From: an uncultured Planctomycetales bacterium
GTDB taxonomy: Bacteria > Omnitrophota > Gorgyraeia > Gygaellales > Profunditerraquicolaceae
Assembly: GCA_964603585.1 (NCBI GenBank)
Contig: CAZRVK010000002.1
Span: 28,282 to 92,281 of the forward strand
DNA: 64,000 nucleotides
Direction: 5' to 3'
The notes under the pieces are model-generated. The model was not told the origin of the DNA, did no database searches, and saw only the letters and a list, made by a program, of their open reading frames with translations. The translations under genes were made by a program, and so were the position numbers. Positions 1 to 34,312 of the stretch are shown here, piece by piece; the first letter of the stretch is position 1; every line of letters starts with the position of its first letter.

Positions 1-578
1 GCGCCCCAGGCAGATTGATTCTTTTTGCAATAATTCACTGTGGCCAATAAGGTTTTCAGGTTTAAAAGCGGTTCCCCGCCGTAAAAATCAACTACCAGAT
101 CTTTGTCATTTCCGCTTAATCCTACCAGCATATCTACAGCTTTAAAGGCGATTTGTTCGGACATTTGTCCGCAAGACTCATCTCGGGACTCCTGTGTACG
201 CTTTTGCTCCTGGAAATTGGTATTGGAGTATTTGCCATAATCGTTCCAGCAATACCGGCATCGAAGATTGCATTGTGAAGTCAAATTAAGTGTTAAATCG
301 GTAAGTGAACCGGCGATCCCTTCTTCGGGAAGTGAATCCCCGGGATCCGGCAAGGGGAAAAGTTCGGTTATTTCTGGCGGGATTTTCTCCTGATCTGCCA
401 GATTTCTGGCTTGTTCCCGGGATAATTGTTCGGCGGTTTGGCGTAATTTAACATCCCAGTTCTTTAACGCAGAGTAGGTTTCAGAGGATAAATCATAAAA
501 ATCTCCGGTTACTGTGGAAACACCGAGATAACGCCCTAATTTCTCGAAAAGATAAAGCGGGGATTTAGAATTATCCAT
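1..578 (-). CDS. Radical SAM protein, probably SPASM/anSME-like peptide- or protein-modifying type. N-terminal ~190 aa only; the 3' end lies outside the window.
   Basis: I translated the minus strand from the ATG at 578. It gives MDNSKSPLYLFEKLGRYLG...LNLTSQCNLRCRYCW (a CxxxCxxC motif at residues 103-110) and ...VVDFYGGEPLL (the GGE SAM-binding motif). An unusual ~95-aa extension precedes the Cys triad. There is no obvious SD sequence. Confidence 0.6.
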   Translation of the reverse strand, partial: MDNSKSPLYLFEKLGRYLGVSTVTGDFYDLSSETYSALKNWDVKLRQTAEQLSREQARNLADQEKIPPEITELFPLPDPGDSLPEEGIAGSLTDLTLNLTSQCNLRCRYCWNDYGKYSNTNFQEQKRTQESRDESCGQMSEQIAFKAVDMLVGLSGNDKDLVVDFYGGEPLLNLKTLLATVNYCKKNQSAWG

Positions 579-584
579 TTGCGG

Positions 585-622
585 TTAAAAAATTACCGGC
601 ACGAATGATCTTGAGTGCCGGT
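585..622 (-). terminator. Rho-independent terminator-like hairpin on the minus strand. It has an 8-bp GC-rich stem (ACCGGCAC/GTGCCGGT), a 12-nt loop and a TTTTTT run.
   Basis: Perfect inverted repeat at 595-602 / 615-622. On the minus strand it is followed by AATTTTTTAA (585-594). It lies between a 27-aa micro-ORF and the radical SAM start. Confidence 0.4.
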
Positions 623-651
623 AATAAGTAATTTAAACAACTTTCTGGTTT

Positions 652-735
652 TTACCAAAGGACCCTGCCGGAACGGCAATAACGAGAAAGCTTCTTCTTG
701 GATTTGGTATCCTTATTGATCTTCTTGGCTTTCAT
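652..735 (-). CDS. Micro-ORF of 27 aa (MKAKKINKDTKSKKKLSRYCRSGRVLW). Lys-rich small peptide of unknown role.
   Basis: Not in the ORF track (<60 aa). Strong SD (GGAGGGG) 4 nt upstream of the ATG. It sits directly upstream of the terminator hairpin and the radical SAM/SPASM-like gene. It could be a precursor-like peptide, or spurious. Confidence 0.3.
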   Translation of the reverse strand: MKAKKINKDTKSKKKLSRYCRSGRVLW

Positions 736-802
736 AACCCCTCCTTTATTGTCTTTATTTAATTTTACCAGACCAAAAAACAAATGTCAAGGATAATACC
801 GT

Positions 803-2647
803 TTAGGTTTTTTCCTTGAACCGTGTGCGTGAATTTTTAAGCGCAAATAAACCAAGGCACAGACAAATAAACAAGATCATCCCTGAAAAACCCCAAACAA
901 AAGAAGAAGGCAGATAATAAAGAACGATCTTTGTATCGGCGGGGAGAACCCTGACCCCGATCAAACCATGATAACTGAACACCTTCTTCCCGAAAGAATG
1001 CCATCCGGGGAAATAATTCTGATTAACCACCAAAATATCCTCTCGCGCGGCATTTAGATCCAATACAAGCAAATTAGGGGAAAAAATCCTGCAGCCAACC
1101 TGGCCGCTATCTCCGACCAAGTAGTATTCACCCTTATACCCGTTTTCCTGGCGGGGAATGACCTTGCTTTCGATTTGATTGCCGATGCTATCATAGCCGG
1201 ATACTACCCCTTCATTTGCCCGGATGGAATCAAACATGTTTGCATGGTTGCCACGGGTCTGGGAAAAATCATTTTGCGGGCAAACAACCTCCGTCCGGTA
1301 ATTTATCGGCCTGGCATCTATTTTAAAGATCTTATCTGCCGGCAAAAATACGCCGCCTACGACCAGGATCAAGATCCCTGTATACAGAACAACCGCACCT
1401 TGGCGCGAAAGCCTAAGTTTTCTGAATAAATCCTGAACCACCAACCCTAAGATCACCGACCAACAAATCACGAATGGGGCAAAGAACATCTGCGGTTCAC
1501 GGTATGAGCTAAAGAAAAAATGCAATATTCGCCAAAGATTAACCGGGCTATTATCTCCTAAGGCCAGGAAAAAAGATATAATCCCGATTATTAAAATAGA
1601 CAACCTTTCTTTACGCAGTAAAAAAGGGGCTGCCATCAATGCTAAAATTGTGATGAAGGGGAAATTATACCCAAGCATATGTTCATGAGAAAAGAAAACA
1701 TCCACATATAAGTTGTGGCGGGAAAAAAAGAAATGCCCCGATTCCCGTAGAAACGAACTGAATACCTCGGGACTAAGAAAAACCGGCATAGCCGGCAATT
1801 GGATATGGCGCGGTAAAAGCCGCATCAGTTCATACAAAGGTAAAAGCTTAGGCCCGGCAAGAATCAGACAAACACACAACGCCTTTATAAAAAGGATAAC
1901 CGCCCTGTATTTCTTTTCTAAGATAAATCCCCAAAGAGATTCAATGCCTAAAACCATCGTGATTATGATGAAGGCATATACCGAACCGGAATAGACGCAA
2001 TGAGCCAATAAAAACGGTATTGGCCAAAAATAAACTACTTTTTCTTTGGCCTTTTTGAAAAACCAGAGCACCCAGGGTAAAAATGAGATATTTAAGAATG
2101 TAAAGCTCCCAACATAGGCAATGATATTGAATATATTCAACACAAATACCGCACTCAATAAACTAAATGGCCGGCCGGCCCCATAAAGGCGTGATAAGGC
2201 ATATACCCCCAGCATGGCTATAAAGGCCTGTACAAGGTATACAGATATCACTCCTAGGATTGAACCTAAAAAAATAACCGGCAGAAAGAAAAAAGACAGG
2301 AAATCGGACTCTGGATGCGCTAACCACGGCAGGCCGCCACCAATATACGGGTTCCAAAAAGGTAATTGGCAATACTCCAAGACAGCCTTACGCGATAGCT
2401 CATGATAGGTAAAAACCTTGTCCCAATCGGCACGATTAATTGGATGAAAATGACCAAATACTGTAAAAAACCACGCCGCACATACAATACAGAGACAAAG
2501 AACAAAAAAACGGTCATGATCGAATTTCTTCCGTACCAGAAATATTATCTCGTTTAGGCCCTTCATGGATTGCTCTCCAGAGACATGATTACTAACCGGT
2601 ATTTTTGCCTTCGCGCATGAATTCCAGCAATAGGACAATCGCGCCAT
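803..2647 (-). CDS. YfhO-family polytopic membrane protein (GT-C-fold glycosyltransferase-like).
   Basis: More than 10 hydrophobic helices. The C-terminal soluble domain contains NQNYFPGWHSFGKKV...GVRVLPADTKIVLYYLP, resembling the YfhO C-terminal signature. The true start is probably the internal M (MKGLNEII, about 2566), which would avoid overlap with the upstream radical SAM gene. Confidence 0.55.
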   Translation of the reverse strand: MARLSYCWNSCAKAKIPVSNHVSGEQSMKGLNEIIFLVRKKFDHDRFFVLCLCIVCAAWFFTVFGHFHPINRADWDKVFTYHELSRKAVLEYCQLPFWNPYIGGGLPWLAHPESDFLSFFFLPVIFLGSILGVISVYLVQAFIAMLGVYALSRLYGAGRPFSLLSAVFVLNIFNIIAYVGSFTFLNISFLPWVLWFFKKAKEKVVYFWPIPFLLAHCVYSGSVYAFIIITMVLGIESLWGFILEKKYRAVILFIKALCVCLILAGPKLLPLYELMRLLPRHIQLPAMPVFLSPEVFSSFLRESGHFFFSRHNLYVDVFFSHEHMLGYNFPFITILALMAAPFLLRKERLSILIIGIISFFLALGDNSPVNLWRILHFFFSSYREPQMFFAPFVICWSVILGLVVQDLFRKLRLSRQGAVVLYTGILILVVGGVFLPADKIFKIDARPINYRTEVVCPQNDFSQTRGNHANMFDSIRANEGVVSGYDSIGNQIESKVIPRQENGYKGEYYLVGDSGQVGCRIFSPNLLVLDLNAAREDILVVNQNYFPGWHSFGKKVFSYHGLIGVRVLPADTKIVLYYLPSSFVWGFSGMILFICLCLGLFALKNSRTRFKEKT

Positions 2648-4082
2648 GAACTTTGTTAAAAAGCTCTCTAAAGCTCCTGGTCCGCAATAAACTTCTTAAG
2701 ATAAAACCCGGACGCAGGTAAAATAAACGGTATCCGGCATTTACCAATAAAGACAATTCTTTTTCACTGAATAGGTCTGTGCAGATCTGGGGGATATACT
2801 GTTTCTGATACCCAAGCGGGTCTTTTGCGAACTTAAGCCAGAAATCTTCTTTGATCAAACCATTAGCCAAACAATCGCTGTAGAGTTTCGTTTTAGGATA
2901 TGCGGTCAAGAACCCGAATTGCACATAATCCAGATCCAACTCCCGGGCAAATTTAAAGGTATTGTAAATATGCTCCCTGCCCTCTCCCGGAAAACCAATG
3001 ATAAAGCTGCCTACGGCCAGGATCTTGTTTTTCTTGGTCAAAGCGACTGCATTACGGATATCTGCGACACAAACCTCTTTATTTATCTTCTTTAAGAATT
3101 GATCGCTTCCGGTCTCCAAGCCATAATGTATGCGCTCACAACCCGATTTTTTTGCAATACCCAGTAGTTCATCGGTTATCATATTTACCCGGGCACGAAA
3201 ACTCCAGGTAATGGGAAGCCGAGCCTTTAATATCGCAGCAGAGATATCTATCACGCGCTGTGTATTCAGATTAAATAGATCGTCATAAAAAAAGATTTCC
3301 CGTATCCCCAAAGCCGTTATTTGCTGTAACTCCTGTAAAATGTTGCCTGTGCTTCGCGTACGATAAGTCTTTTGGGGAGAATAACAGAATATACATTGGT
3401 ATGGGCATCCCCGACTGGAAATTATAGTCGCGACCACATTTTGGCTGCCCAGGGCACAGCGATATGCATAATTATCGATCATCGAACGGTCAATGACCGG
3501 CAAAGAATCCAGGTCATCAATATACCCCCGGTTTTCATTTATATATACGCTGCCTTTATCCCGGAAACCTATCCCTTTTATTTTATCCAACGCCTTATTC
3601 TCAACCAGATTATTCACCAGCTCAAAGAATGATTGCTCACCTTCCCCTCTAATAATGAAATCTACCGAGGGTTCTTCAAGCACTTGGTGCGGATAACAAT
3701 CGACGTGATGCCCGCCGAGCACGATAACCGCATGGGGATTGACGCTCTTAACCAGCCTGGATGTCAAAACAACATCGATCATTGCCGGAGTAAAAGTGGT
3801 GATTCCGACGATATCAGGCATAAAGGCAATGATCTTCTGCTCCAGTTGGGCATATGTAAGCTTATGGACCGCAGAATCGATAACTTTGACCTCTATCTCG
3901 CCGGGAAAGTTGGTTTTTAGATAGGCGGCAATAGATAATAGGCCTAACGGAGGATACTCCCCGATGGATGCGGTGATCGCCCGGGTTTTCTCCATCCTGA
4001 ACGTATTTTGGCGGGGCGGATTTATCAATAAAACCCTGTTCGCGCCAAGCCCTTTTTTCGGGACAGTCAAATCTTCGCTCAA
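2592..4082 (-). CDS. B12-binding (class B) radical SAM enzyme.
   Basis: N-terminal cobalamin-binding Rossmann-like domain (VLLINPP...PPLGLLSIAAYL...IVLGGHH...IIRGEGE). Followed by SSRGCPYQCIFC (CxxxCxxC). Confidence 0.85.
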   Translation of the reverse strand: MSEDLTVPKKGLGANRVLLINPPRQNTFRMEKTRAITASIGEYPPLGLLSIAAYLKTNFPGEIEVKVIDSAVHKLTYAQLEQKIIAFMPDIVGITTFTPAMIDVVLTSRLVKSVNPHAVIVLGGHHVDCYPHQVLEEPSVDFIIRGEGEQSFFELVNNLVENKALDKIKGIGFRDKGSVYINENRGYIDDLDSLPVIDRSMIDNYAYRCALGSQNVVATIISSRGCPYQCIFCYSPQKTYRTRSTGNILQELQQITALGIREIFFYDDLFNLNTQRVIDISAAILKARLPITWSFRARVNMITDELLGIAKKSGCERIHYGLETGSDQFLKKINKEVCVADIRNAVALTKKNKILAVGSFIIGFPGEGREHIYNTFKFARELDLDYVQFGFLTAYPKTKLYSDCLANGLIKEDFWLKFAKDPLGYQKQYIPQICTDLFSEKELSLLVNAGYRLFYLRPGFILRSLLRTRSFRELFNKVHGAIVLLLEFMREGKNTG

Positions 4083-4086
4083 CGGT

Positions 4087-5787
4087 TTAACCTTTCTTGA
4101 CTATAAAATAAGTGTTGATACCGCCCGATATTATATTCTCGATTTTAACCTGGATCGATGAGGCGCGGCAGAAATCCAGGAATTCAGCCAAAGATAATTC
4201 GTTGTGGGAATATCTCTGTGCACTGAAAATATAGTGATCATGCAGATCATCTTTGATGATTTTCTCTAATATTTCCCGTTTTCTTGCCCCATCCGCAGAA
4301 TAAAAAACCTGGGTGTAATGGATCGGCCGGATCTCGCCTCTTGACAAATACTCGGTTGACCCAATAAAAGCGTATTCAAAAGTAACCGGCTCGCGAATAT
4401 TTCTTTCTCTAAGATACCGGACTAATTCCTGATCCATATCCCCGGGAAAAGAAAATAAATATGGCCGGGCGACTCCAACAGTAACAATTGCGGCATTAAC
4501 AATAACACAGCTGAAGACTACGGTATAAATAATGCGTCTTACCGCAGGTATCGGATAATTATAGGATAATCGGCATAAAACGGCTGCGGATGCTATGAAT
4601 AAAAACGGCAATAAATTGATATAATAGCTTTCATTCCCCGGATAGCTTATTAATGTAATCAGCGCAAGCATTGCGGCCGGAAGGAACAGGAAAAATTTGA
4701 TCTTTTTAAAAGAATGATCTTTTATCCTCATATCTTTGTAGAAAAAAATAAAGATGAGAGCCGTAAAAAGCATAATAAAGGGTTCACTGCTATAAGCCCC
4801 AAGGGCAAAAGAGGTCATAAATCCCAGGTTTTTAGGGATCTTCGCAATAATTTCAGGTAATACTTTAATAAGAGAAGCGTCTGTCGAAGCCCCATCAAGA
4901 AAACGGTTAACCAGGAATAAAACACCCCCGCCAGATCCATCAATGTTATATAAAATCACGGGCAATGCACCCAGCACCAGGAACAATCCCGCAAATAAAA
5001 GCGGCACGGATTTTAATCTAACAGGGATCTTCATGATCAATAAAATCAATACCCAAGCAGAGAGCATAAAGATAACGGTCAGTTTAATATATAACGAAAC
5101 TCCTATGATAAAGAAAAGGAAGAACAATGCCGGCAAACTGCCCTCTTTTTGCCTATACTTATAAGCCAGTAAAAGAATGCCGATTTGCGCCAGCATGATG
5201 TAATTATCGCAAAAGCGTAAATTATTTATATTGCTCAAGAATGGCAGGGATGTCGCCAACAGAAGCACAGAGAGATTCGCTTCATCCAGGCCAAAGACAT
5301 GCCTTGATAATAACCAGGTAGCAACAAGGATCAACAGCCCAACCAGGTATGCATGGACCCTAAGAAAATCAAGATTATACATATCCCTGAACAAAAGCCC
5401 ATGAACATAAAAAGAGAGGTTGCCGCTTCCTCCATTTTTCATGATCGGCAGCCGCAGAGACGGGAATTGCCAAAGATAAGAAACAAAATTCGAATTACAC
5501 ACCGCTGTTTTTAGATTGCCGATCTGTCTTATACTTGCCGAGGAATATTTATCGGGGATGTCTTTATCAAAGATAGCATACCGGGGCTTATCATCTTCTG
5601 CAAACCCGGAAACTATCCTCGGGGAAACCGTCAAAAAAGGAGCTACCTCTTCGCTTATGAAATTATTATGAAAATGAAAATAGATCAGGCAACAAAGTGC
5701 CGCATATAATAAAAGTACCCCGGATAAAAAATACTTGCTTCTAAAAAAGATCCCAAAGGATACAATAGACAAATGAGGTATTTTCAT
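4087..5787 (-). CDS. Large polytopic membrane protein with a cytoplasmic or periplasmic C-terminal domain. Possible GT-C-like glycosyltransferase.
   Basis: About 12 predicted TM helices and a Gly-rich loop (NIDGSGGGV). Its stop/start is coupled to the neighbouring genes. No firm family motif recognised. Confidence 0.4.
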   Translation of the reverse strand: MKIPHLSIVSFGIFFRSKYFLSGVLLLYAALCCLIYFHFHNNFISEEVAPFLTVSPRIVSGFAEDDKPRYAIFDKDIPDKYSSASIRQIGNLKTAVCNSNFVSYLWQFPSLRLPIMKNGGSGNLSFYVHGLLFRDMYNLDFLRVHAYLVGLLILVATWLLSRHVFGLDEANLSVLLLATSLPFLSNINNLRFCDNYIMLAQIGILLLAYKYRQKEGSLPALFFLFFIIGVSLYIKLTVIFMLSAWVLILLIMKIPVRLKSVPLLFAGLFLVLGALPVILYNIDGSGGGVLFLVNRFLDGASTDASLIKVLPEIIAKIPKNLGFMTSFALGAYSSEPFIMLFTALIFIFFYKDMRIKDHSFKKIKFFLFLPAAMLALITLISYPGNESYYINLLPFLFIASAAVLCRLSYNYPIPAVRRIIYTVVFSCVIVNAAIVTVGVARPYLFSFPGDMDQELVRYLRERNIREPVTFEYAFIGSTEYLSRGEIRPIHYTQVFYSADGARKREILEKIIKDDLHDHYIFSAQRYSHNELSLAEFLDFCRASSIQVKIENIISGGINTYFIVKKG

Positions 5788-7325
5788 TTTCGTTGGCTGA
5801 ATGTAAGATGTTTTAAATAATATAATTCCAAACCGCTAAAGGATGTCTCTTTTAAAATAAGTTCCTGGCGGGACAAGTATTCATGCAATGGCTCTGAAAC
5901 CGGGACTACCCCTTCCTGCCAGGAGCCGCAAATCAGCCAGATCCCCTTTATTTTTACTGGTAATTTTGCCAGGTCTGTAATACCGATATGCGAAGTTCGC
6001 GTTATGGCATATAAGGCCTTATCCTGTCCGGAGTAACTTTCCTGGCTATCTACCAAAAAAATGTTTTTATGTAACGGCTCTGGCAGATAATAAAAAATGG
6101 GATAAATCAGGCTTGTATGGCTAACTGCGATAATATCACCCGGACGGTATAGCGTCTTAATAACCGCCGCCAATCCGGCAACCGGCTTTTTAACCACTAC
6201 CCCCACAGACGCAGAGAATTTTTCCTCCAAATAGTAGTTTTTAAGCGAAACGGCGGAAAAAACTGCCAGGATCAGGCAAAAAATAACAAAAACGGCCCTG
6301 TATTTCCTTAAAGATTCCATGCCGTATGCCAAGAGCATGTAGAAAAATACCGAAACTGTAATAAGTGTCCTGCTCATATACACCGGCCGCAACAGCAGCG
6401 AAACAATAAGAGTAAGCAGGCATGGGATCAGAATACAGCAAAATAACCATTTTCCCGCGGCTCGCGCATTATCACGGACAATATTTATAATACTAAACAC
6501 AAGGATCGCGGCGATAAATACCCCCTGGGATAGAGACAAGCCCCGCGTATAATACCCAAAAATAAAATCCTTAAAAACGACAAAAATATCTTTGATCGTT
6601 ATTCCGGGAGACCAAAAATATTCCTGCACGCGGGCAAAATGGTCGAAAAATACTCTACCCCATGGCAAAAATAATATTACAAGAATAAAGTTTGAGATCG
6701 CCCAGGATCTTAACAGTCCTACGGATCTATTTTTCCACAGGATATACAGTACCGCGCAATTTAATCCGGCTAAGAAAAAAAATGATGCGTATTGACAGTA
6801 TAAAGAAAGGGCTCCGGAAACGACATACCCGGCCAGATTTACTTTTTTCCCGGTATGCACCAGGCGAATGGCAAAATACGCGCTAAAAAGCGACAACATA
6901 AGATATAACGAATACATCTTTACTTCTTGCGCATAATAAATTTGAAACCCTGAAATGCTCATAAAAAGCGAGGTCCAAAGAGCAATCCTGCGGCCGCAAA
7001 GATCAACGGCAATTTTATAAGCCAGTAATATAGAGCATAGGCTAAAGATCACCGAGGGGAAACGTACTACCCACTCCGCTTGCCCAAGACCGGACCAGAA
7101 ATGCATAATCAACCTGAATAAGGGGGGATGCACCCCTTCGGCAGCACCACCCAACAAATCCGGGATATCCTTCCTGGATTCAAGCAATAAGAATGCTTCA
7201 TCAAACCAAAGGGATTTTGATCCTAACATGAAGATCCTTAAAGATATAGCCGCTAAAATAATGGCTATGAAATAAGAATTCCCCCTGAATATCCTGGCAG
7301 ATTTATCAATTAAGGTGTTTATCAT
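5784..7325 (-). CDS. GT39/GT83 (ArnT/PMT-like) GT-C-family glycosyltransferase.
   Basis: N-terminal TM helix followed by a first loop carrying SLWFDEAFLL (the DE(A) catalytic-loop motif of ArnT/PMT-type polyprenyl-phosphate-sugar transferases). Then about 11 TM helices and a C-terminal soluble domain. Confidence 0.6.
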   Translation of the reverse strand: MINTLIDKSARIFRGNSYFIAIILAAISLRIFMLGSKSLWFDEAFLLLESRKDIPDLLGGAAEGVHPPLFRLIMHFWSGLGQAEWVVRFPSVIFSLCSILLAYKIAVDLCGRRIALWTSLFMSISGFQIYYAQEVKMYSLYLMLSLFSAYFAIRLVHTGKKVNLAGYVVSGALSLYCQYASFFFLAGLNCAVLYILWKNRSVGLLRSWAISNFILVILFLPWGRVFFDHFARVQEYFWSPGITIKDIFVVFKDFIFGYYTRGLSLSQGVFIAAILVFSIINIVRDNARAAGKWLFCCILIPCLLTLIVSLLLRPVYMSRTLITVSVFFYMLLAYGMESLRKYRAVFVIFCLILAVFSAVSLKNYYLEEKFSASVGVVVKKPVAGLAAVIKTLYRPGDIIAVSHTSLIYPIFYYLPEPLHKNIFLVDSQESYSGQDKALYAITRTSHIGITDLAKLPVKIKGIWLICGSWQEGVVPVSEPLHEYLSRQELILKETSFSGLELYYLKHLTFSQRK

Positions 7326-8745
7326 GTTTTTTCCACAATCTTATCCTCGGCAGGAGCATATTCATCCCCGATCTTATATAATGTAAAAATTGCTTAAAAG
7401 ACTTTATTTTAAAAACTAACCGTACTATTTGTGATAGCCTTAGATAGAAGCCGCGATTAGCCAAAGAAACATATTTGCCGATCACATCCGGGGCAAAAAC
7501 TACTCCTGCGGCCTGCGGCGGAGTTGTCCAATCCTGTTCCTCAATAAACCTGCGCCAATAGTCATCTCCTCCGGAGCGCAAAAATGAATGGTAAAGCTCG
7601 GAATCGGGAAGCATCGTAAACTGGGTAAAGTGGACGAAATCAAGCCCCAACTGCCTGGATAATTCAATATCCTTTAAAATGTCTCCCCGGCCCTGGCCGG
7701 GTAAACCCAGCATAAAGAAACCAAATGCCATTATCCCGGCATTTCTGGTAAACCTGATGACCTCTTTGGTGCGTTCAAAAGAAACCCGGGGCCTGCCTAA
7801 CTGCTCAAGGCAAGGAGAATTAAATGATTCTATTCCATACATGACCATTTTGCAACCACTACCATACATAACTTTAAGCAAATCATTATCGATACAACTA
7901 AGATGCGTCCTTATCCGCCAGGATATATCCAGGCCTTTTTCCTTTATCCCTGCACACAGCCGATAAACCCGCTGTTTATCCGCAGTAAAAATCGAATCGT
8001 AAAAGTCTATCTCCCGGACCCCGAATTCATGATAACACTGGCTGATCTCATCCAGGATATCGTCAGCACTCCTTAAGAATAAATCTCCGGGCAAAGAACA
8101 ATAGCGGCATTTGAACAAACAACCTTGGGATCCGACAATCGAGGTGAAATTCTTTCTTTCCAAAAGTGGCGAATAGTATAATTTATTATTCAGTAACCTT
8201 CTCTCCGGAAAAGGAAGCCGGCTTATATTGGATGAATCTATCGCCGCAGAATTTACGATAATATCGCCATCCCTGCGAAAACACAAGCCGGGGATCTTAT
8301 CAAGCCGGGATTTATCCATAAATGAATCCAGAAAATCCGGAAGCGTCCCTACAGCGTTGCCAATAACCCCATAATCGATCGCCTGATGCTGCATTACCTG
8401 TTTAGGATACAGCTTCATCATAGAGCCGCCCACAATGACAGGTATATCCTGATATTTCTTGATCGCCGTTATCCATTCGAGTACACCGTAAAAAGTAGGG
8501 ATGGTTAGAGTAAAAGCGGTCGCATCGGCTCCGAATTCTTTTATCCTTTCGACTATTTGCTTAAGTTTCCAATTAAGGATATTTGCATCGATAATTACAG
8601 CTTGATGCCCGGAATTATTTATAAGCGCCGCCACATAAGCCAAACTAAGCGGAGGATATCCACTCATATTCTCAAGATAACCTTGCGGCCTGAAAGTACT
8701 GTCGTAATATTGAGTGATCCTGGGATATATTAGAGCTATTCTCAT
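7306..8745 (-). CDS. B12-binding (class B) radical SAM enzyme.
   Basis: IALIYPR...PPLSLAYVAAL...VIVGG (B12 domain). GSQGCLFKCRYC (CxxxCxxC). Confidence 0.85.
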   Translation of the reverse strand: MRIALIYPRITQYYDSTFRPQGYLENMSGYPPLSLAYVAALINNSGHQAVIIDANILNWKLKQIVERIKEFGADATAFTLTIPTFYGVLEWITAIKKYQDIPVIVGGSMMKLYPKQVMQHQAIDYGVIGNAVGTLPDFLDSFMDKSRLDKIPGLCFRRDGDIIVNSAAIDSSNISRLPFPERRLLNNKLYYSPLLERKNFTSIVGSQGCLFKCRYCSLPGDLFLRSADDILDEISQCYHEFGVREIDFYDSIFTADKQRVYRLCAGIKEKGLDISWRIRTHLSCIDNDLLKVMYGSGCKMVMYGIESFNSPCLEQLGRPRVSFERTKEVIRFTRNAGIMAFGFFMLGLPGQGRGDILKDIELSRQLGLDFVHFTQFTMLPDSELYHSFLRSGGDDYWRRFIEEQDWTTPPQAAGVVFAPDVIGKYVSLANRGFYLRLSQIVRLVFKIKSFKQFLHYIRSGMNMLLPRIRLWKKHDKHLN

Positions 8746-8749
8746 TTTC

Positions 8750-10180
8750 TTAGACCTGCTTACCCTTATATGCCAAGGTTAAGGTCATATTCCTAATGAT
8801 AATAAAGAGGTTGCGTGCATAATAGAAATAGTGGCCTGAAAATAAAACTTTCCGGAATAATCGCATGATCACCGAAGGGCGCAGATAAAAAGCACAATAC
8901 GCCTTAAAAACCAACGATTTTATTTTCTTATAAGAAAACCCCTTCGGGAGATATAGTATTTCCTCTATATTTTTAGAAGTAAAATTCTCCCACTCATGAA
9001 ATATCTTTCCCCCTTCCCGCACCTTAAGATCCATAAGCCCTGTTGCCGGGAATACAATCGGGGCGCTGAAAGATGCCATATCGATATATTCTCTGGCTAA
9101 TGCAAGCGTCTCTTCTGCCGTCTGATCAGTTTCTCCCGGGGCACCGATCAGGAAATTGCCAAAAGAAATTATCCCCTGCCTGCGGGTAGCCTTAAGATTC
9201 CTTAAACTGATATCCAAGGATGATTTTTTATTTAAACGGTCTAAAACCTGCTGTGACCCTGATTCGACGCCATAAAAAATCAGTTCGCACCCGGATTTTT
9301 TCATTAACTTCAAGGTTGTTTCATTTGCAAGGTCAGGCCTGGTAACACAAAACCATTTTATCCCCAAACCTCTATCCAAAAGCTCTTGGCAAAACAGTCG
9401 GCTCCAATTATCATCAGAAGTAAATATAGCATCCAGGAAATGGAACCTCTTTACTCCATATTTATTTTTGAGAACGCTGATTTCTTCAATTACGTTTGCG
9501 ACAGACCGCCTCCTAAGCTGATCCCTCCAGACAGAATTATTGCAAAATAAACACTTATAAAAACACCCGCGGGAACTAAGAATAGGCAAAATCAGTTCAC
9601 CAGGTACAGCGCTTGAGAACAAAACATGATGCAGTGCTACCTGATAATTATTTACATTAATAAAACTGTAATCGGCAAAACCCAGTTTATCGATATCCTC
9701 AACCAGTGAGGGCAAAGGGGTAGAGATTATTTTGCCCTGGGATTTGAACATTATGCCTTTTACATCCTCCAAAGGAGAATGATTCTTGACAGCAAAACAT
9801 AAGTTTACGAAAATACTCTCCCCTTCGCCTATAACTACGCAATCGCAACAGGGTGCATCCAGGCATCTGGCGGGGGCATTCGTCGGATAAACCCCTCCCA
9901 AGACTGTAAATATGCCCGAAGAGACCTTTTTAACCTGCTCGATAACACAAAGGGCATCTTTGTGCGTAAAAGCCATGGAAGTCACCCCGACTATATCCGG
10001 CTGAAAATCTACTATGCGTTCTTTAATCTGTCCTAAACTGTATTCGCATGCATTAGCATCGATTAAAGATATCTCCTTGAAACCATTGGATTTAAGTGAA
10101 GCCCCAATATAAAGCAGCCCGAGTGGAGGGTATTTATAGCTAAAGATACTGCTTCTGGGATTGACCAGCATTATACGCAT
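8750..10180 (-). CDS. B12-binding (class B) radical SAM enzyme.
   Basis: IMLVNPR...PPLGLLYIGASL...VIGEGE (B12 domain). SSRGCFYKCLFC (CxxxCxxC). Confidence 0.85.
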   Translation of the reverse strand: MRIMLVNPRSSIFSYKYPPLGLLYIGASLKSNGFKEISLIDANACEYSLGQIKERIVDFQPDIVGVTSMAFTHKDALCVIEQVKKVSSGIFTVLGGVYPTNAPARCLDAPCCDCVVIGEGESIFVNLCFAVKNHSPLEDVKGIMFKSQGKIISTPLPSLVEDIDKLGFADYSFINVNNYQVALHHVLFSSAVPGELILPILSSRGCFYKCLFCNNSVWRDQLRRRSVANVIEEISVLKNKYGVKRFHFLDAIFTSDDNWSRLFCQELLDRGLGIKWFCVTRPDLANETTLKLMKKSGCELIFYGVESGSQQVLDRLNKKSSLDISLRNLKATRRQGIISFGNFLIGAPGETDQTAEETLALAREYIDMASFSAPIVFPATGLMDLKVREGGKIFHEWENFTSKNIEEILYLPKGFSYKKIKSLVFKAYCAFYLRPSVIMRLFRKVLFSGHYFYYARNLFIIIRNMTLTLAYKGKQV

Positions 10181-10208
10181 AACTGCCTTCTTTTTTATGA
10201 GCTTAAAG

Positions 10209-10964
10209 TTATTTGCTTATGAGCTGATTATTGATCATCGCTTCTTTAAGTTCAAGCACTTCGACAAAAGACCCGCGGTATCTATTCATTAATGTCTTTT
10301 CCTCTGGTTTTCTGTATTCTATATGCGTAAATGGAATAAAGGTGTGTACCATTTTTACAAATCCGACTCCTTGGGCGATCCAAAAGTCATACGTATGCAT
10401 ATGTTTACTGACTCCTTTAAGATCACGATAAGTATGTCTTACAAAAAAATGAAGGCACAAGAAATCCCCTGCCGCAGACTGCACCATCTCTTTGCCCAGA
10501 TAGGTTATCCCCGCTTCCACAGCCTCTTTATCCAGGAGATTGCCCTGATAATCATATATTGATTGCACCGAAAAAGAAAACTGGTTTGGGTTCATTTGTG
10601 ATGGCAGCATAAGCAGCGGGGGCGAAAATCTCCGGATGACCTTATGCGGCACCTGACCTGTCAGCTGCTGGTTCTGAAAGAACAATATCCCTGCGGGTGT
10701 ACGCACATTGGTCATCAAGCGGTCATGGTATTTACCCCGCCACAAAAAATCAAACTGCCGGCCAAGATTTCCGTCGAAAACATTTTGGACAGTAATCGAG
10801 ACAATATCTGACTCTGCATCTTCGTGGTAGAGATAGACATACTTGTCTCCTTCGTTAAGAGGGAAATACTTTATAATATCATAGGAATCCTTCCATTTCG
10901 CCAGGAAATATATGCCGAATAAAATAACCACAAACAACATGGCCGCAACACGCTTATTCTTCAT
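10209..10964 (-). CDS. Hypothetical membrane-anchored protein with an N-terminal TM helix/signal anchor. Function unknown.
   Basis: N-terminus MKNKRVAAMLFVVILFGIYFLA is hydrophobic. No recognisable domain. Embedded in the radical SAM/GT-C cluster. Confidence 0.45.
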   Translation of the reverse strand: MKNKRVAAMLFVVILFGIYFLAKWKDSYDIIKYFPLNEGDKYVYLYHEDAESDIVSITVQNVFDGNLGRQFDFLWRGKYHDRLMTNVRTPAGILFFQNQQLTGQVPHKVIRRFSPPLLMLPSQMNPNQFSFSVQSIYDYQGNLLDKEAVEAGITYLGKEMVQSAAGDFLCLHFFVRHTYRDLKGVSKHMHTYDFWIAQGVGFVKMVHTFIPFTHIEYRKPEEKTLMNRYRGSFVEVLELKEAMINNQLISK

Positions 10965-11089
10965 CTCTTATCCCTTCATTATCTTAAAAACTGTGTTTTA
11001 ATATCCTACCTATCGAACATTCTTCATAAAAAATCAGATCCCTGCCTTTAAGATTGCCCCGGATCCATACCTAAAATACAACATAAACT

Positions 11090-12778
11090 CTACTCCGCGT
11101 TAGAAAAACTGTATACCTCTATTTTATTGCCCTTCCAATAATCTTTTTGTTTAAAGTAATGTTTAAGCCAACCCAGGTAATTTAAAAGGGCATTCCTGCG
11201 CATATGTTCTATCCCAAGATAATCTTCATATGGAACAATCACCCGTAGACACTCATTCTTATTCATGCGTTGTGCAATCTGAATGGGAGAAATACTACCT
11301 ACGATCGAAGTGAAAAATACATCCGGATCCCTGCCGAAAACGGCATTATATGAAGCATAAACAGCCCCATTAACCCATTCCGTAGGCCAAACGACCCTAT
11401 CCTGCGGCGTAAGCCTTTGTTTTATATATGCCATGGCCTCTCGATAAGCAGGATTCATGTTATTAATGATTATCGCTCCAGAAGAAATCAGGTTAAACGG
11501 CACAACAAGCAGGCAAAATAAGTAGCCGATAATCCGCTTATAGAATACTGTGGATTTAATTACCTCATGAATCAATCGGGAATACACAAGGCAAACAAAA
11601 GGGATCAGCCAAATATAATGTCGAACGTTAAAATATGCTACCCCTATACGGGATAAAACATAACTAAAATAACACCAGTAAACTATTGCTATCGCAAATA
11701 CGGAGATAGTCAGTGTAATAAACGGTGGATTGGGCCTTTTTGCATGAAAAACAAGATAAAGCAGGAAAAGAAGAATGAACGGCGCTGTATAAAATGATCC
11801 GTCTCCTGCAAAGCCAAAGATGATCTTTAGAATATGCCCGGTAAAATATAATAATTTATCCTTTTCTGGATAGAAAAGCATCCCCGCCCTCATCCCGGAA
11901 GAAGCTCCAGAATAATACAGGTTTATCGGTAACAATATTGCTGGTATATGCAATATAAACAAGAAATTAAAGATAAGAAGTGCTTTCACAAACCTCAAAA
12001 GATCAACCAAACCATCCCTATATTTAGTTATCCATAGAATGACCAAAGCCAAACCTTGAGAAATAATTACCTGCAAGGCCAGCATGTGCATAAGAAAACA
12101 CGCCATCGTGGCAAGGCAATATTTCCAGATTCCCCGGTCTTTTTTTAAAATAAAAGCCTCCCAGAAGTAATAGTAACTAAGCAGACTGAAAAAAAGAAAA
12201 ACCGCGTAGCTTTCGATCCTAAGGCTATAAAAAGTAAAAAGGATATGGGTTGATAAAAATAGGACTGATAGATACGCTATTGCTCTCTTCTTGAATATTC
12301 TTAACGACAGCTTAAAGAATATATATATGGACAAACTGCTAAAGAGTATTGATACGGCCCTGGCCAGGAATGTCCAAACCCTGAATTCGATAATTGATTT
12401 GAGTTCGTTGGAAAAAATCAGCACATACAAAAACTGGTGCATCACCGTATAGCATGCTTGCGCGACTGCTGCCAGGCTAAAATGCGGTACGGGGAAAATG
12501 TTAAATGCCTCAATAGCATCTTCGCTTAGCTTGAGAATAGAGATCAGCTTTATGCAGCCTAAAATAACTATCCCAATAATGACAAAAATATCTAAGCGCC
12601 GAAAACCCTTGCCAGCAGATTTATTCTCCATCTTAGATCCTGCTGACACTGGTTTCAAATGAGCCCCGAGTAAATACAATAGGCAGGCATTCAATGCGAT
12701 CAATATTAGAAGCAGCGGAAAGTAATACATATAATACTCCGCCAGAGAAAATGAGTTTAATAAAACCTTAGATAGCAT
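11090..12778 (-). CDS. Polytopic membrane protein, paralogue A of a three-member GT-C-like (glycosyltransferase family 39-like) family.
   Basis: Shares FTFYSLRIESYAVFLFFSLLSYYYFWEAF and a C-terminal ...YWKGNKIEVYSF with the ORFs at 12768-14402 and 15814-17502. Acidic first-loop motif (LSEDAIEAF). Confidence 0.55.
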   Translation of the reverse strand: MLSKVLLNSFSLAEYYMYYFPLLLILIALNACLLYLLGAHLKPVSAGSKMENKSAGKGFRRLDIFVIIGIVILGCIKLISILKLSEDAIEAFNIFPVPHFSLAAVAQACYTVMHQFLYVLIFSNELKSIIEFRVWTFLARAVSILFSSLSIYIFFKLSLRIFKKRAIAYLSVLFLSTHILFTFYSLRIESYAVFLFFSLLSYYYFWEAFILKKDRGIWKYCLATMACFLMHMLALQVIISQGLALVILWITKYRDGLVDLLRFVKALLIFNFLFILHIPAILLPINLYYSGASSGMRAGMLFYPEKDKLLYFTGHILKIIFGFAGDGSFYTAPFILLFLLYLVFHAKRPNPPFITLTISVFAIAIVYWCYFSYVLSRIGVAYFNVRHYIWLIPFVCLVYSRLIHEVIKSTVFYKRIIGYLFCLLVVPFNLISSGAIIINNMNPAYREAMAYIKQRLTPQDRVVWPTEWVNGAVYASYNAVFGRDPDVFFTSIVGSISPIQIAQRMNKNECLRVIVPYEDYLGIEHMRRNALLNYLGWLKHYFKQKDYWKGNKIEVYSFSNAE

Positions 12779-14402
12779 TTTTAGGCGTATATAGATAGAC
12801 TTTTATTTTATTCCCCGACCATACAGATATAAGATCCAATTGCTGATTTAAAAAATCCAGGTAGGTAGGGAATAAATTACTGTTCAAATGGGATGAGCCG
12901 AAATAATCTTCCTGGAAGATGATAATCCAGAACCGCTTGAATCTTTCTTTCTTCTTTAATATATTTCCGGGGTATAATTCTCCGGAATTCTCGAAATCAA
13001 GGTTAAGCCGCCCTTTGGAATTAAATTTAATGCACATGCGTATACAGCAAGGATAACCTAAAAAATCATTTTGGTGATCGATTTGCTGGCTTATATAACC
13101 TAATGCGCCATTATAATCAGAAACCCAAAGATCGGTTATTATCTCCTGTGATTTAGACAGGTTTATACCGCCCAAAAAAATGACTAAAACCAGCCCGGCA
13201 ACCTGAAAACACCTTTTTCCTGAACGCAGCAGGCGGATCAAACCATAACTGTATAAAATGGTCAAAAACGGGACAAGCCATAAGAGCTGGCGGATATTGA
13301 AATACAGTTTTCCGGAAATCGATATCATCCGCAGAAGAAAAAATGACTCATATAAAAAACCCGCAGTTAAAATAGATACGATCATCAGGAAAAAACTTTT
13401 ATTTTCTTTTGCTAATAAATACAAGAATATAAATGCTAGCAGGCAAAAACCCAGAGCAGGAATCAAAAAATAGGTCCCGGACAATAATCTAAGGATATCG
13501 CCTAAGACAGAGGAAAGGCTCTCTTTTCCTAACAAAAAACCACCGTCTGAACGGAATGTCTTATCCCAGAGAGCAAGATATCCAAGCGGCAAATAGAGAA
13601 TAAATAAGAAGCCGCCAATAAACACCGAACGCACAAACAACAGGGATTCCCGCTTGCCAACCAGTGATCTTGCCTTTAATAACAAGATGGCGCATATCTG
13701 CCCAAAAAGAAGAAAAATCGTCAAATAATGTGTTAAAAAAGAAATGATCAAAACAACCGCGTATTTAATCTGTGCTTGCCTGAAGCCCTGGACAAAAGCC
13801 TGCCAGAAATAGTAACAGCTCAAAAGCGACAAGAAGGAAAACGCAGTATATACTTCTATCCGGCGAGAATAAAAAACAAATAAAAAATGGATATTAAGCA
13901 AAATAAATGACGATATCGCAATATCTTTCCGGTTAAACACTACAAAACATAACTTGTAAGCCAGATATGCGGTAAGAACCCCGAATACTACAGAGAAAAA
14001 ACGTAAGGAGATTAAACCATATTGCGCGCCCGCAATATTATTTATGAATTCCGAGATAATGTGGTATAGCGGCTGATGGGAACAAAAGATCATATTGGTC
14101 AGGAAACTACCGATACCGGAATGAAGGAACATAAGATTGGTGGATTCCATTATATCAAAACTCTCTCTATCTAAATTAAAACTTTTCCAGGCTGTAAAAA
14201 ATACGGCCAATAAGACAACTGTTTGGCTAAACAATAAATTTGATCCCTGCGGGGAAGTTTTAGCTGCGGCGGTGTTGTCTTTATGCAAACGCCTGTTCAA
14301 AAAGAATAATATTATCCAGTTAATAAGCAGGCCGATGACTATACCCGGCCAGTAATCCGCATAAAGTTTAACTAATTTATCGATGAAATACCGTTCATCC
14401 AT
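12768..14402 (-). CDS. Polytopic membrane protein, paralogue B of the GT-C-like family.
   Basis: FVFYSRRIEVYTAFSFLSLLSCYYFWQAF. C-terminal VWSGNKIKVYLYTP. First-loop DIMES motif. Confidence 0.55.
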   Translation of the reverse strand: MDERYFIDKLVKLYADYWPGIVIGLLINWIILFFLNRRLHKDNTAAAKTSPQGSNLLFSQTVVLLAVFFTAWKSFNLDRESFDIMESTNLMFLHSGIGSFLTNMIFCSHQPLYHIISEFINNIAGAQYGLISLRFFSVVFGVLTAYLAYKLCFVVFNRKDIAISSFILLNIHFLFVFYSRRIEVYTAFSFLSLLSCYYFWQAFVQGFRQAQIKYAVVLIISFLTHYLTIFLLFGQICAILLLKARSLVGKRESLLFVRSVFIGGFLFILYLPLGYLALWDKTFRSDGGFLLGKESLSSVLGDILRLLSGTYFLIPALGFCLLAFIFLYLLAKENKSFFLMIVSILTAGFLYESFFLLRMISISGKLYFNIRQLLWLVPFLTILYSYGLIRLLRSGKRCFQVAGLVLVIFLGGINLSKSQEIITDLWVSDYNGALGYISQQIDHQNDFLGYPCCIRMCIKFNSKGRLNLDFENSGELYPGNILKKKERFKRFWIIIFQEDYFGSSHLNSNLFPTYLDFLNQQLDLISVWSGNKIKVYLYTPKNAI

Positions 14403-34305: not shown

Positions 34306-34312
34306 TTTATCC

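Follow-up and report, generated by a model that had tools for sequence, protein, structure and literature searches.

A near-invariant micropeptide and an adjacent RRE-radical SAM-SPASM enzyme: a probable two-gene RiPP cassette in Omnitrophota and Elusimicrobia

Introduction

At the start of the 64,000-nucleotide stretch of DNA analysed here (hereafter the window), the minus strand carries a micro-ORF of 27 codons, a hairpin and the 5' part of a radical SAM enzyme gene. This arrangement leads us to question whether the small peptide is the substrate of the enzyme encoded beside it. A first-pass annotation of the window had considered that the two might form a RiPP-like pair and had left the matter open; the genomic coupling of the two genes and the architecture of the complete enzyme, both described below, now support it. 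We assign a probability of about 0.82 to the interpretation that they are a precursor/maturase pair, that is, a two-gene RiPP cassette.

Gene layout and expression signals

The strong Shine-Dalgarno site and the 27-codon ORF previously described on the minus strand are present (Table 1), and the encoded peptide is Lys-rich, with a net charge of about +10. Its promoter agrees with the consensus at 11 of 12 positions and is the top-ranking site in 3 kb. Across the family, a promoter-like site (at least 10 of 12 positions) lies within 130 nt 5' of the peptide gene at 38 of 104 loci against 2% of random windows, which is about 18-fold above background; a match of at least 5 of 6 positions to AGGAGG stands 5' of 99 of these 104 genes, and 103 of them start with ATG.

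Table 1. Features of the peptide and enzyme genes in the window.
Feature	Position	Strand	Details
Promoter of the peptide gene, sigma-70-type	762..790	-	-35 TTGACA 790-785, 17-nt spacer, extended -10 TGgTAAAAT 770-762 (TG 770-769, TAAAAT 767-762)
Shine-Dalgarno site	740..744	-	GGAGG, 4 nt 5' of the peptide ATG
Probable precursor peptide gene	652..735	-	27 codons + TAA; MKAKKINKDTKSKKKLSRYCRSGRVLW; common to 104 distinct loci
Proposed RRE recognition motif	712..720	-	I-N-K, codons 6-8; inferred
Core of the peptide	655..681	-	YCRSGRVLW, codons 19-27, abutting the stop codon; Cys20 and Trp27 invariant
Terminator-like hairpin + T6	587..625	-	Between peptide stop and enzyme start; arms 625-615 and 602-592 (11 bp), 12-nt loop, T-run 592-587
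RRE-rSAM-SPASM enzyme (probable maturase), 5' part	1..578	-	192 of 499 codons; full protein P0038
N-terminal RRE (PqqD-like winged helix)	303..578	-	Residues 1-92; predicted fold
Radical SAM cluster motif	249..272	-	C103-N-L-R-C107-R-Y-C110; invariant in 88-90 family members
GGEP, SAM-binding motif	69..80	-	G167-P170; invariant in the family

The intergenic hairpin with its T-run had also been noted, although the real stem is 3 bp longer than first described, and the enzyme ATG, thought to follow after 14 nt, lies 8 nt past the last T and 13 nt past the stem. The hairpin has a folding z-score of -3.6, and equally good folding arose in 0-1 of 200 shuffles. No Shine-Dalgarno site is evident at the enzyme start in the window. 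When related loci were scanned for a terminator-like feature, 13 of 48 passed, of which about 6-8 are convincing. The terminator is therefore lineage-specific and not conserved family-wide, and we rejected it as a feature of the family. The earlier proposal of an attenuating terminator applies to no more than a minority of loci, and we hold the chances that the terminator functions as an attenuator to be evenly balanced.

The full-length enzyme

The enzyme gene begins with the ATG at 578, and its reading frame leaves the window at the window's start after 192 aa. Both the radical SAM Cys triad and GGEPLL, the latter from G167 onward, are found in this portion, as the first-pass annotation had read them. 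It had further proposed that extending the contig might reveal a SPASM domain, and this proved to be the case. Contig L141, which is identical to the window across 10,578 nt (0 mismatches), completes the enzyme as a protein of 499 aa (P0038, L141 positions 10001-11500, 100% identity to the part in the window). L141 was located via the protein database; a motif scan of the metagenome collection did not recover the window's contig. The architecture of P0038 is an N-terminal RRE, a radical SAM barrel with CX3CX2C and a seven-Cys SPASM domain whose cysteines (C368, C386, C423, C426, C432, C438 and C457) do not vary across 90 sequences; the Pfam SPASM model scores 21.0 bits, with a gathering threshold of 21.5. 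Beyond these, C184 is near-invariant, as is C300 in type A (one of three peptide-enzyme types, A to C). These two residues might serve as the remaining ligands of auxiliary cluster I, which would weaken the thiolate-binding step of the mechanism proposed below.

The long N-terminal extension had been suspected of being a recognition domain. In the AF2 model of P0038 (pLDDT 88.8), residues 8-71 adopt the beta-beta-beta-alpha-alpha-alpha topology of an RRE (strands 8-13, 16-21 and 27-30; helices 32-47, 54-63 and 68-71), with block-mean pLDDT values of 84-98 across residues 11-80. The RRE proteins McbB and lasso B1 were among the structural matches to a model of the enzyme fragment; that model, built on a 5-sequence alignment, was poor outside the RRE and was replaced by the full-length one. 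Charge complementarity between an acidic RRE and the cationic leader was considered and rejected, the RRE charge being -8 in the window with a family median of +5 and a range of -10 to +13.

A Foldseek search with the P0038 model placed CteB first (E = 4e-30, TM 0.82-0.84, about 480 columns including the RRE) and anSME second (TM 0.80 to target, with only about 400 columns aligned). By phmmer, the homolog at locus L006 matches CteB (5WGG) with E = 6e-41, and all seven SPASM cysteines align. The best NCBIfam models for P0038 were PapB (224 bits), nif11-like (201 bits, 8-477), QhpD (193 bits) and ScfB (182 bits), and the protein falls under every NCBIfam family cutoff.

Conservation of the peptide

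One striking feature of the peptide is its C-terminus, [Y/F]CR[S/C]GRVLW followed directly by the stop codon, which is near-invariant across loci. The last 12 codons exist in 40 different DNA versions, in which the core residues C, R, G, R, V, L and W are constant, yet each is written with 2-5 synonymous codons, the single-codon Trp excepted; the sole exception found to this constancy is a G to A replacement in L043. The peptide ends at Trp throughout, and the core octapeptide stays near-invariant across phyla while the enzyme falls to about 35% identity. The peptide gene is thus real and subject to protein-level selection: more than 100 distinct loci pair the same ORF with the same enzyme, and in seven of the last eight codons all changes are synonymous, so that the micro-ORF is more than a chance occurrence.

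Family peptides are 25-53 residues long and carry one Cys in the core, or two in type B; Asp, Glu, Thr and Asn, which could serve as acceptors, are all missing from the core. The remainder of the peptide, the leader, varies in sequence and length except for one motif, hydrophobic-Asn/Ser-Lys/Arg, which keeps a constant spacing of about 12 residues to the Cys and whose Asn is at least 90% conserved in types A, B and C. We propose that this motif is what the RRE of the enzyme recognises.

Genomic coupling and neighbourhood

The peptide and enzyme occur as a unit in more than 100 loci of uncultured Omnitrophota, Elusimicrobia and a few other lineages, and the peptide gene accompanies orthologous and paralogous enzymes alike, which answers the earlier call for a conservation check of the micro-ORF. 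Searching from the enzyme, we found the micro-ORF at 44 of 45 assessable loci, and in a DNA scan starting from the peptide, 70 of 74 peptide genes had the enzyme as a neighbour, 16-170 nt apart (merely 16-24 nt in some loci). Each of the peptide types A, B and C is matched to its own enzyme clade. In five loci (L019, L025, L031, L035 and L096) the two genes converge, with the peptide gene at the 3' end of the enzyme gene, which means that the linkage outlasts rearrangement. The peptide gene is therefore genetically coupled to the enzyme family. No peptide was detectable at one enzyme locus (L036), and three peptide genes (L066, L067 and L105) have no adjacent maturase; one of these orphans adjoins an IS element, suggesting a disrupted locus.

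In the neighbourhoods compared, no other gene is conserved and there is no conserved protease or transporter; no sulfatase, protease or transporter gene adjoins the enzyme, and a search of the 10 kb to each side, in L141 and in the window, found no sulfatase. A B12-binding radical SAM group lies directly 3' in about 10 loci. We considered it as a third partner and left it outside the system because in the window the ortholog sits at a distance of 32 kb.

Comparison with known systems

The closest known counterpart is the SCIFF/ScfB system of Clostridia (CteA/CteB, Tte1186a/Tte1186), which likewise combines an RRE, a radical SAM domain and a seven-Cys SPASM domain, and whose maturase CteB is the closest solved structure to P0038. 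As here, SCIFF consists of a small peptide and one maturase found lineage-wide with no linked protease or exporter, a pattern that in the case of SCIFF has been read as evidence against an antibiotic function (PMC8326336). The ScfB model aligns end to end with type-B enzymes (3-449 against 1-444), but P0038, L006 and L041 reach 182, 193 and 250 bits, respectively, under the cutoff of 425 (TIGR03974). The precursors differ as well: a SCIFF precursor (TIGR03973-type) of about 45 residues contains six Cys and has Thr acceptors, whereas the peptides described here, 25-53 residues long, contain 1-2 Cys, have a polycationic leader and a Trp-ending core, and occur in Omnitrophota and Elusimicrobia instead of Clostridia.

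PapB, the maturase of freyrasin-type ranthipeptides, provides the top NCBIfam model, with 224-246 bits over the whole radical SAM and SPASM region, under the family cutoff of 340 (NF047865). The model begins at enzyme residue 92, leaving the RRE outside. The presumed chemistry here would be PapB-like, a sulfur-to-carbon thioether with the Cys on the auxiliary cluster (PMC10177961). PapA substrates, however, contain repeated Cys-X3-Asp, and the present core has neither Asp nor Glu. The third-best model is that of another thioether-forming SPASM enzyme, QhpD (193-223 bits, cutoff 453). The QhpD substrate comes to carry a Cys-Trp-derived cofactor (CTQ), which may be compared with the invariant Cys and invariant Trp of the core. 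Unlike our peptide, that substrate is an approximately 80-residue protein subunit in which Asp/Glu are the acceptors, and no qhp genes were found near the enzyme.

The models for the nif11-like maturases (TIGR04064, aligned over 8-477) and CcpM (TIGR04068, 28-472) align through the N-terminal domain too, so that the RRE is homologous; the scores are 201 bits against a cutoff of 519 and 168 against 500, and the corresponding precursors (Nif11-leader and Cys-rich peptides) are unrelated to the peptide studied here. Mycofactocin offers an analogy only: MftA is a small peptide whose core ends in a C-terminal aromatic residue and is modified by the radical SAM/SPASM enzyme MftC, and the mycofactocin product is intracellular, not secreted. 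MftA ends in GVY, whereas our peptide ends in RVLW, and mycofactocin has a separate MftB chaperone where the RRE is here fused to the enzyme. For the type-B homolog L041 the MftC model (TIGR03962) scores 66 bits, the cutoff being 265, and it does not appear in the list of the 25 top families for P0038; no mft genes lie beside the enzyme. With respect to the StrB/SuiB enzymes (streptide, KxxxW), the core reads R-V-L-W and the four residues nearest to the Trp include no Lys, and SuiB is a distant structural match only (TM 0.54, rmsd about 16 A).

Discussion

We regard the peptide and its probable maturase as a new RiPP family that belongs to an established kind. Judging from the genomic coupling and the class of the enzyme, the peptide is very likely the substrate, and the product of the cassette is almost certainly an undescribed modified peptide. 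In the mechanism that we propose, whose five steps are modelled on characterised relatives, the micro-ORF would be expressed from its own strong promoter and strong ribosome-binding site as a 27-residue polycationic precursor, made of a Lys-rich leader of variable length and the essentially invariant core YCRSGRVLW at the free carboxyl terminus. The RRE would dock the leader as an additional beta-strand and the core would go into the barrel, where the invariant Cys would place its thiolate on the open iron of auxiliary cluster I. The 5'-deoxyadenosyl radical would then take a hydrogen from a downstream core residue, and a sulfur-to-carbon thioether would form, giving a small C-terminal macrocycle with a mass change of -2 Da. 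Binding of the leader by the RRE has been reported for CteB (PMC8326336), and that of a Cys to the open auxiliary-cluster iron has been described as well (PMC10177961). In this genome, the intergenic hairpin and T-run probably stop most transcripts, and termination between the genes would leave peptide mRNA in excess of enzyme mRNA.

We rank a thioether from the invariant Cys as the most likely modification and give it an even chance. Since the core has no acceptor of the PapB, QhpD, ScfB or NxxcB type, another cross-link (Arg-Trp or Cys-Trp) or chemistry at the C-terminal Trp is possible, and the lack of any known thioether-SPASM acceptor motif makes it likely that either the acceptor residue or the cross-link is new. 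With no linked protease or exporter, the product may act intracellularly, possibly with its cationic tail retained. The same lack, together with the near-invariant octapeptide and the constant Trp end, leaves room for a bolder interpretation that we regard as unlikely: that the product, a counterpart of SCIFF, mycofactocin or PQQ in Omnitrophota and Elusimicrobia, is a modified peptide with a cofactor-like or regulatory role inside the cell and not a secreted antibiotic. This peptide would be made by new chemistry (for instance a C-terminal Trp that is oxidised or cross-linked to Cys, Arg or Val), and its polylysine tail would be kept, targeting the mature molecule to RNA, DNA, ribosomes or anionic lipids.

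Two other explanations accept the peptide as real but not as the substrate. It could be a cis-acting leader or arrest peptide in the style of TnaC or SecM, whose conserved C-terminus would hold up ribosomes as they reach the stop codon and, jointly with the hairpin, govern transcription or translation of the radical SAM gene downstream. The conserved stretch does end precisely at the stop, with the terminator next in the window and an enzyme start that lies 8 nt past the T-run with no evident Shine-Dalgarno site, and the shortest gaps in some loci could permit coupling. We nevertheless find this explanation very improbable. In the five convergent loci the peptide gene lies 3' of the enzyme gene on the opposite strand, where no cis action on the latter is possible, and both the small share of loci with a convincing terminator and the wide range of spacings weigh against it as well. 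The enzyme bears an RRE, the members of its clade are all peptide modifiers, and no other conserved candidate substrate lies nearby; the distance of the leader motif from the Cys is also that expected for RRE recognition. Scarcely more probable is that the peptide is an independent small basic protein, such as a binder of ribosomes, nucleic acids or membranes, which is merely syntenic with an enzyme whose substrate is unlinked. It resembles the Lys-rich tails of nucleic-acid-binding proteins (the H1-like match, E = 0.3, is insignificant), its neighbourhood offers no protease or exporter, and three peptide genes have no enzyme. Mere synteny, however, fits poorly with 95% co-occurrence in both search directions, with peptide types that co-diversify with enzyme clades, and with a linkage kept in the convergent layout where all other synteny is lost; as for the enzyme-less genes, the one next to an IS element points to disruption.

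The remaining alternatives deny the peptide any role. That the enzyme is an anSME or another non-RiPP SPASM enzyme, with the micro-ORF irrelevant, draws on anSME being the second-best structural match and on weak matches to the anSME models, but the scores of these models (TIGR03942 and NF010321), 81 and 69 bits, fall short of the cutoffs of 349 and 441, anSME has no N-terminal RRE and aligns over fewer columns than CteB, and the sulfatase search came up empty. This explanation is effectively refuted. The first-pass annotation had itself named a sulfatase maturase with a sulfatase neighbour, and an unconserved micro-ORF, as what would speak against the pair; we found neither. The notion of a chance ORF in an AT-rich, A-rich spacer could appeal to a length of only 27 codons, a biased composition and the fact that gene callers and annotators mostly ignore it. 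It is refuted by the codon-substitution pattern, the frame, the ATG and the Shine-Dalgarno site being common to 104 loci, with an invariant C-terminus and synonymous third positions.

In these ultra-small, uncultured bacteria, few short sequences are conserved as strongly as the peptide of the precursor/maturase pair thus favoured. As a SCIFF-like, widely conserved pair that comes without export machinery, the two genes touch on the question of 'housekeeping' roles of RiPPs, and since the whole system comprises 27 + 499 residues, direct synthesis of the peptide and co-expression of the pair are feasible.

For annotation, a specific maturase name can now replace 'Radical SAM protein' in these genomes, and a missing gene can be added. 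Gene callers mostly miss the peptide because most copies (25-36 residues) are under typical calling thresholds. We found no Pfam or NCBIfam model that covers it and no source name or paper; its NCBIfam matches are limited to insignificant ones with histone H1-like proteins, and the matches of a peptide profile search (at least 26) are all unnamed or 'hypothetical'; this search scored the 8000 candidates with the most shared words, among which Lys-rich sequences probably predominated. Full-text literature searches with core motif strings and with Omnitrophota plus ranthipeptide or SPASM returned nothing relevant, and Rfam gave no above-threshold match, the only one being to L20_leader (20 bits against 58.7, E = 0.42). 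The first homologs that we encountered were interrupted, by an in-frame TAG in L002, a TGA in L003 and a frameshift in L004. Stop-codon recoding was rejected as the cause, because the stops differ in kind and position and all 46 copies from the genome collection are intact; assembly errors or decay are more likely.

Locus organization and the complete enzyme

On the minus strand of the window, the order read by the first-pass annotation, a 27-codon micro-ORF, then a hairpin with a T-run, then the ATG of a radical SAM (rSAM) gene, is borne out, with small differences in coordinates. The micro-ORF promoter is the top-scoring site in 3 kb, and the hairpin has a folding z-score of -3.6 against dinucleotide shuffles. 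The 192-aa enzyme fragment in the window carries the cysteine triad, as C103-x3-C107-x2-C110, and GGEPLL, both of which had been noted earlier. An Rfam search gave no significant RNA element at the micro-ORF/hairpin region; an L20_leader match at 581-705 (minus strand), overlapping both peptide gene and hairpin, scored 20 bits (gathering threshold 58.7, E = 0.42) and is considered a chance match.

Features of the cassette and its surroundings (window positions unless a contig is named)
Feature	Position	Strand	Remarks
614-aa membrane-protein gene	stop at 803	-	just before cassette region
Promoter	-35 TTGACA 790-785; -10 TAAAAT 767-762	-	17-nt spacer, TG before -10; consensus match 11/12
Shine-Dalgarno GGAGG	744-740	-	ahead of micro-ORF
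Micro-ORF, 27 codons	735-652	-	product MKAKKINKDTKSKKKLSRYCRSGRVLW
Hairpin, 11 bp + T6	625-615 paired with 602-592	-	after micro-ORF
rSAM gene start	ATG at 578	-	8 nt past T-run; 192 codons inside window, then edge
Isoprenoid cluster	L141 11604-16233		past window start, directly after maturase
B12-binding rSAM proteins	2592-4082, 7306-8745, 8750-10180, 14413-15768, 17542-18954, 18970-20391	-	in 803-35536 run
PMT_2 membrane proteins	4087-5787, 5784-7325, 12768-14402	-	in 803-35536 run
DUF2079 membrane protein	21087-22631	-	in 803-35536 run
Membrane proteins without family	803-2647, 11090-12778, 15814-17502	-	in 803-35536 run
~520-aa B12-rSAM group, window member	32737-34359	-	32 kb from cassette
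~520-aa B12-rSAM group, other loci	L008 6780-8393, L011 7558-9117, L015 7625-9190, L017 7588-9153, L018 7503-9062, L027 7539-9110, L034 7545-9104		directly downstream of maturase

Searching with a full-length homolog as query recovered the complete 499-aa enzyme, P0038, which is 100% identical to the window's fragment. Its contig, L141 (Logan assembly of SRR15237810), overlaps window 1-10578 with 0 mismatches and extends 5,898 nt past the window edge; the same locus is present in a second run, SRR15237811. P0038 consists of an rSAM core and a SPASM domain, with Cys368, 386, 423, 426, 432, 438 and 457 invariant in a 90-sequence alignment, a pattern that an 88-sequence alignment repeats; the Pfam SPASM model gives 21.0 bits (gathering threshold 21.5). 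All four top NCBIfam models belong to peptide maturases, three of them thioether-forming: PapB (224 bits), nif11-like (201, with the alignment spanning residues 8-477), QhpD (193) and ScfB (182).

The AlphaFold2 model (90-sequence alignment) is confident, with a mean pLDDT of 88.8 and a pTM of 0.89, and predicts for residues 8-71 three strands followed by three helices, the topology of a RiPP recognition element (RRE), as had been suspected of the long N-terminal segment. Foldseek ranks the SCIFF maturase CteB first (E = 4e-30), with a TM-score of 0.82-0.84 normalised to CteB over ~480 aligned columns that include its RRE. A PDB sequence search with the L006 homolog returned CteB again (E = 6e-41), all seven SPASM cysteines being aligned. 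The type-A maturase end, ...LFGFDPVGRRGNKLY-stop (P0038 residues 484-499, L141 11450-11497), is very well conserved, and type-B maturases terminate instead in ...IPEYYAARG+R; AlphaFold2 confidence is low at this tail.

Conservation of the peptide gene

An enzyme-first survey (identity at least 32%) covered 47 genome loci, the majority in Candidatus Omnitrophota, a smaller share in Elusimicrobia and the remaining few in MAGs that carry the labels Myxococcales, delta-proteobacterium or Planctomycetes. After two loci truncated upstream were set aside, a homologous micro-ORF adjoins the enzyme in 44 of the 45 assessable ones; the same scan found none beside the distant SPASM enzymes L052-L065. Peptide-first, a degenerate DNA pattern for [Y/F]CR[S/C]GRVLW-stop run over a metagenome collection returned 75 loci, 74 real and one a chance match. 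The enzyme lies on the same strand 16-170 nt downstream in 69/74 and is convergent in one; other neighbours stand beside three peptide genes (one adjoining an IS element), and one locus with only 85 nt of downstream sequence was left unassessed. In L019, L025, L031, L035 and L096 the two genes converge, with the peptide gene on the other strand immediately past the enzyme's 3' end, so the linkage survives rearrangement. Each peptide type has its own enzyme clade: A (...[V/I]NKTTKAKKKLSRYCRSGRVLW), B (MIRLLNRRKNRRxYRAAFCRCGRVLW) and C (M.MH[I/V]R..SK...RRTR[F/Y]CRSGRVLW).

Across 104 distinct loci the peptides are 25-53 residues long (modes 27, 36 and 26) with a median net charge of +10; ATG is the start in 103 and 99 have a Shine-Dalgarno site that matches at 5/6 positions or better. 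Promoter-like sites scoring 10/12 or higher occur in the 130 nt upstream of 37% of the genes, compared with 2% of random windows. Repetition of Lys-rich units gives the leader its variable length; it retains a hydrophobic-Asn/Ser-Lys/Arg motif ~12 residues ahead of Cys, and Trp is without exception the last residue. Comparison of the last 12 codons in 40 distinct DNA versions shows C, R, G, R, V, L and W unchanging (L043, with Ala for the core Gly, is an outlier), and each except single-codon Trp is written with 2-5 synonymous codons: selection acts here on the protein rather than on any RNA or DNA element. Judged from these comparisons, the micro-ORF is a genuine gene, conserved and linked to the enzyme.

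Alternative explanations

A cis-regulatory arrest peptide would account for conservation reaching the stop codon, but the convergent arrangements contradict it, as do the variable spacing between peptide and enzyme, the unconserved terminator and the enzyme's own peptide-binding domain. The idea of an unrelated small basic protein, merely syntenic with the enzyme, is contradicted by a two-way co-occurrence of ~95% and by the co-diversification of peptide types with enzyme clades, while an invariant core with synonymous codon variation excludes a chance ORF. An anaerobic sulfatase-maturating enzyme (anSME) with a sulfatase neighbour, which the first-pass annotation had named as one outcome fatal to its proposal, is also excluded: anSME models give P0038 only 81 and 69 bits, anSME comes next in Foldseek with only ~400 aligned columns that lack the RRE, and no sulfatase is among the neighbours on the downstream side in L141 or the upstream side in the window. 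Those neighbours include no protease or transporter either.

Proposed mechanism and product

In architecture the pair matches a RiPP precursor with its RRE-rSAM-SPASM maturase, in agreement with the pairing first proposed, and its mode of working resembles that of ranthipeptide and sactipeptide systems, SCIFF/ScfB among them. Among characterised enzymes the closest are PapB, ScfB/CteB/Tte1186 and QhpD, all of which form Cys sulfur-to-carbon thioethers. Since Cys20 is also the sole universally conserved nucleophile in the core, our best guess, at roughly even odds, is that its sulfur becomes joined in a thioether to a carbon of some residue further along, closing a small ring at the C-terminus. 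Two leads are Val25 and Arg24: the former is at i+5 from Cys20, the offset reported for the Thr in SCIFF peptides, and the latter at i+4, the offset of the PapA Asp. Because Asp, Glu, Thr and Asn acceptors are missing from the core, which always ends at Trp, room is left for other chemistry involving this terminal residue. Binding of the substrate Cys to auxiliary-cluster iron is established for PapB and Tte1186 (PMC10177961). By analogy with CteA, which forms a beta-strand against the CteB RRE (PMC8326336), the leader motif is taken to be the recognition element.

The attenuating terminator proposed earlier probably holds for this genome, where the hairpin with its T-run would stop part of the transcription and leave more peptide than enzyme transcript; such a hairpin occurs in only a minority of loci and is therefore kept outside the family definition. 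The absence of a linked protease or exporter, shared with SCIFF, suggests a possible intracellular role for the product, which may retain its cationic tail.

We classify the cassette as outside every defined family, a new precursor/maturase family within a familiar class, because P0038 is below the curated/equivalog cutoff of every NCBIfam model, no Pfam or NCBIfam model matches the peptide, and a full-text literature search for the core motif returned nothing relevant. Relatives are likewise unnamed: those of the peptide, among the matches listed, are without name or 'hypothetical protein', and at least 161 close enzyme clusters are called only 'radical SAM protein' or 'uncharacterized protein'. 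New rSAM-RiPP families turn up regularly; this one is distinguished by an octapeptide near-invariant across phyla, a tiny polycationic precursor, an uncultured Omnitrophota host and a core without a known acceptor motif, which make new chemistry likely and cheaply testable.

Gene neighbourhood and additional cassettes

Besides peptide and enzyme, no neighbour is conserved across the compared loci. The isoprenoid cluster comprises two small lycopene-cyclase-family genes (Lycopene_cyc, PF18916), a TPR gene, a polyprenyl synthase, a UbiA prenyltransferase and a Pyr_redox_2 FAD oxidoreductase. Upstream, window 803-35536 (minus strand) is a nearly unbroken run of ~25 co-oriented genes, B12-binding rSAM genes alternating with large polytopic membrane proteins. 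One orthologous group of B12-binding rSAM proteins, of ~520 aa, has a mutual identity of 72-87%, far above the conservation of the SPASM maturase; no NCBIfam model reaches its cutoff on this group (BchE, 185 vs 481). L030, L049 and L050 have 521-aa B12-rSAM ORFs in the same position after the maturase and are candidate members of the group.

One Omnitrophota contig (L012) holds type-A and type-B cassettes ~5 kb apart (at 283-387 and 5216-5296), and one MAG has two type-A cassettes (L014 and L018), so the peptide/maturase families are paralogous and able to coexist. Orphan type-B peptide genes without an adjacent SPASM maturase occur at L066 1368-1463 (a different 379-aa rSAM-like ORF before, IS3-like transposase ORFs after), L067 5460-5591 (a B12-rSAM-like gene directly after) and L105 1354-1488 (a glycosyltransferase after). 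Metagenomic maturase copies are interrupted at L002 3511 (TAG), L003 3512 (TGA; also without a peptide gene) and L004 near 2550 (frameshift). Recoding is disfavoured, as the sites differ and none of the 46 genome-collection copies is interrupted; errors in assembly, or copies in decay, are the likelier explanation.
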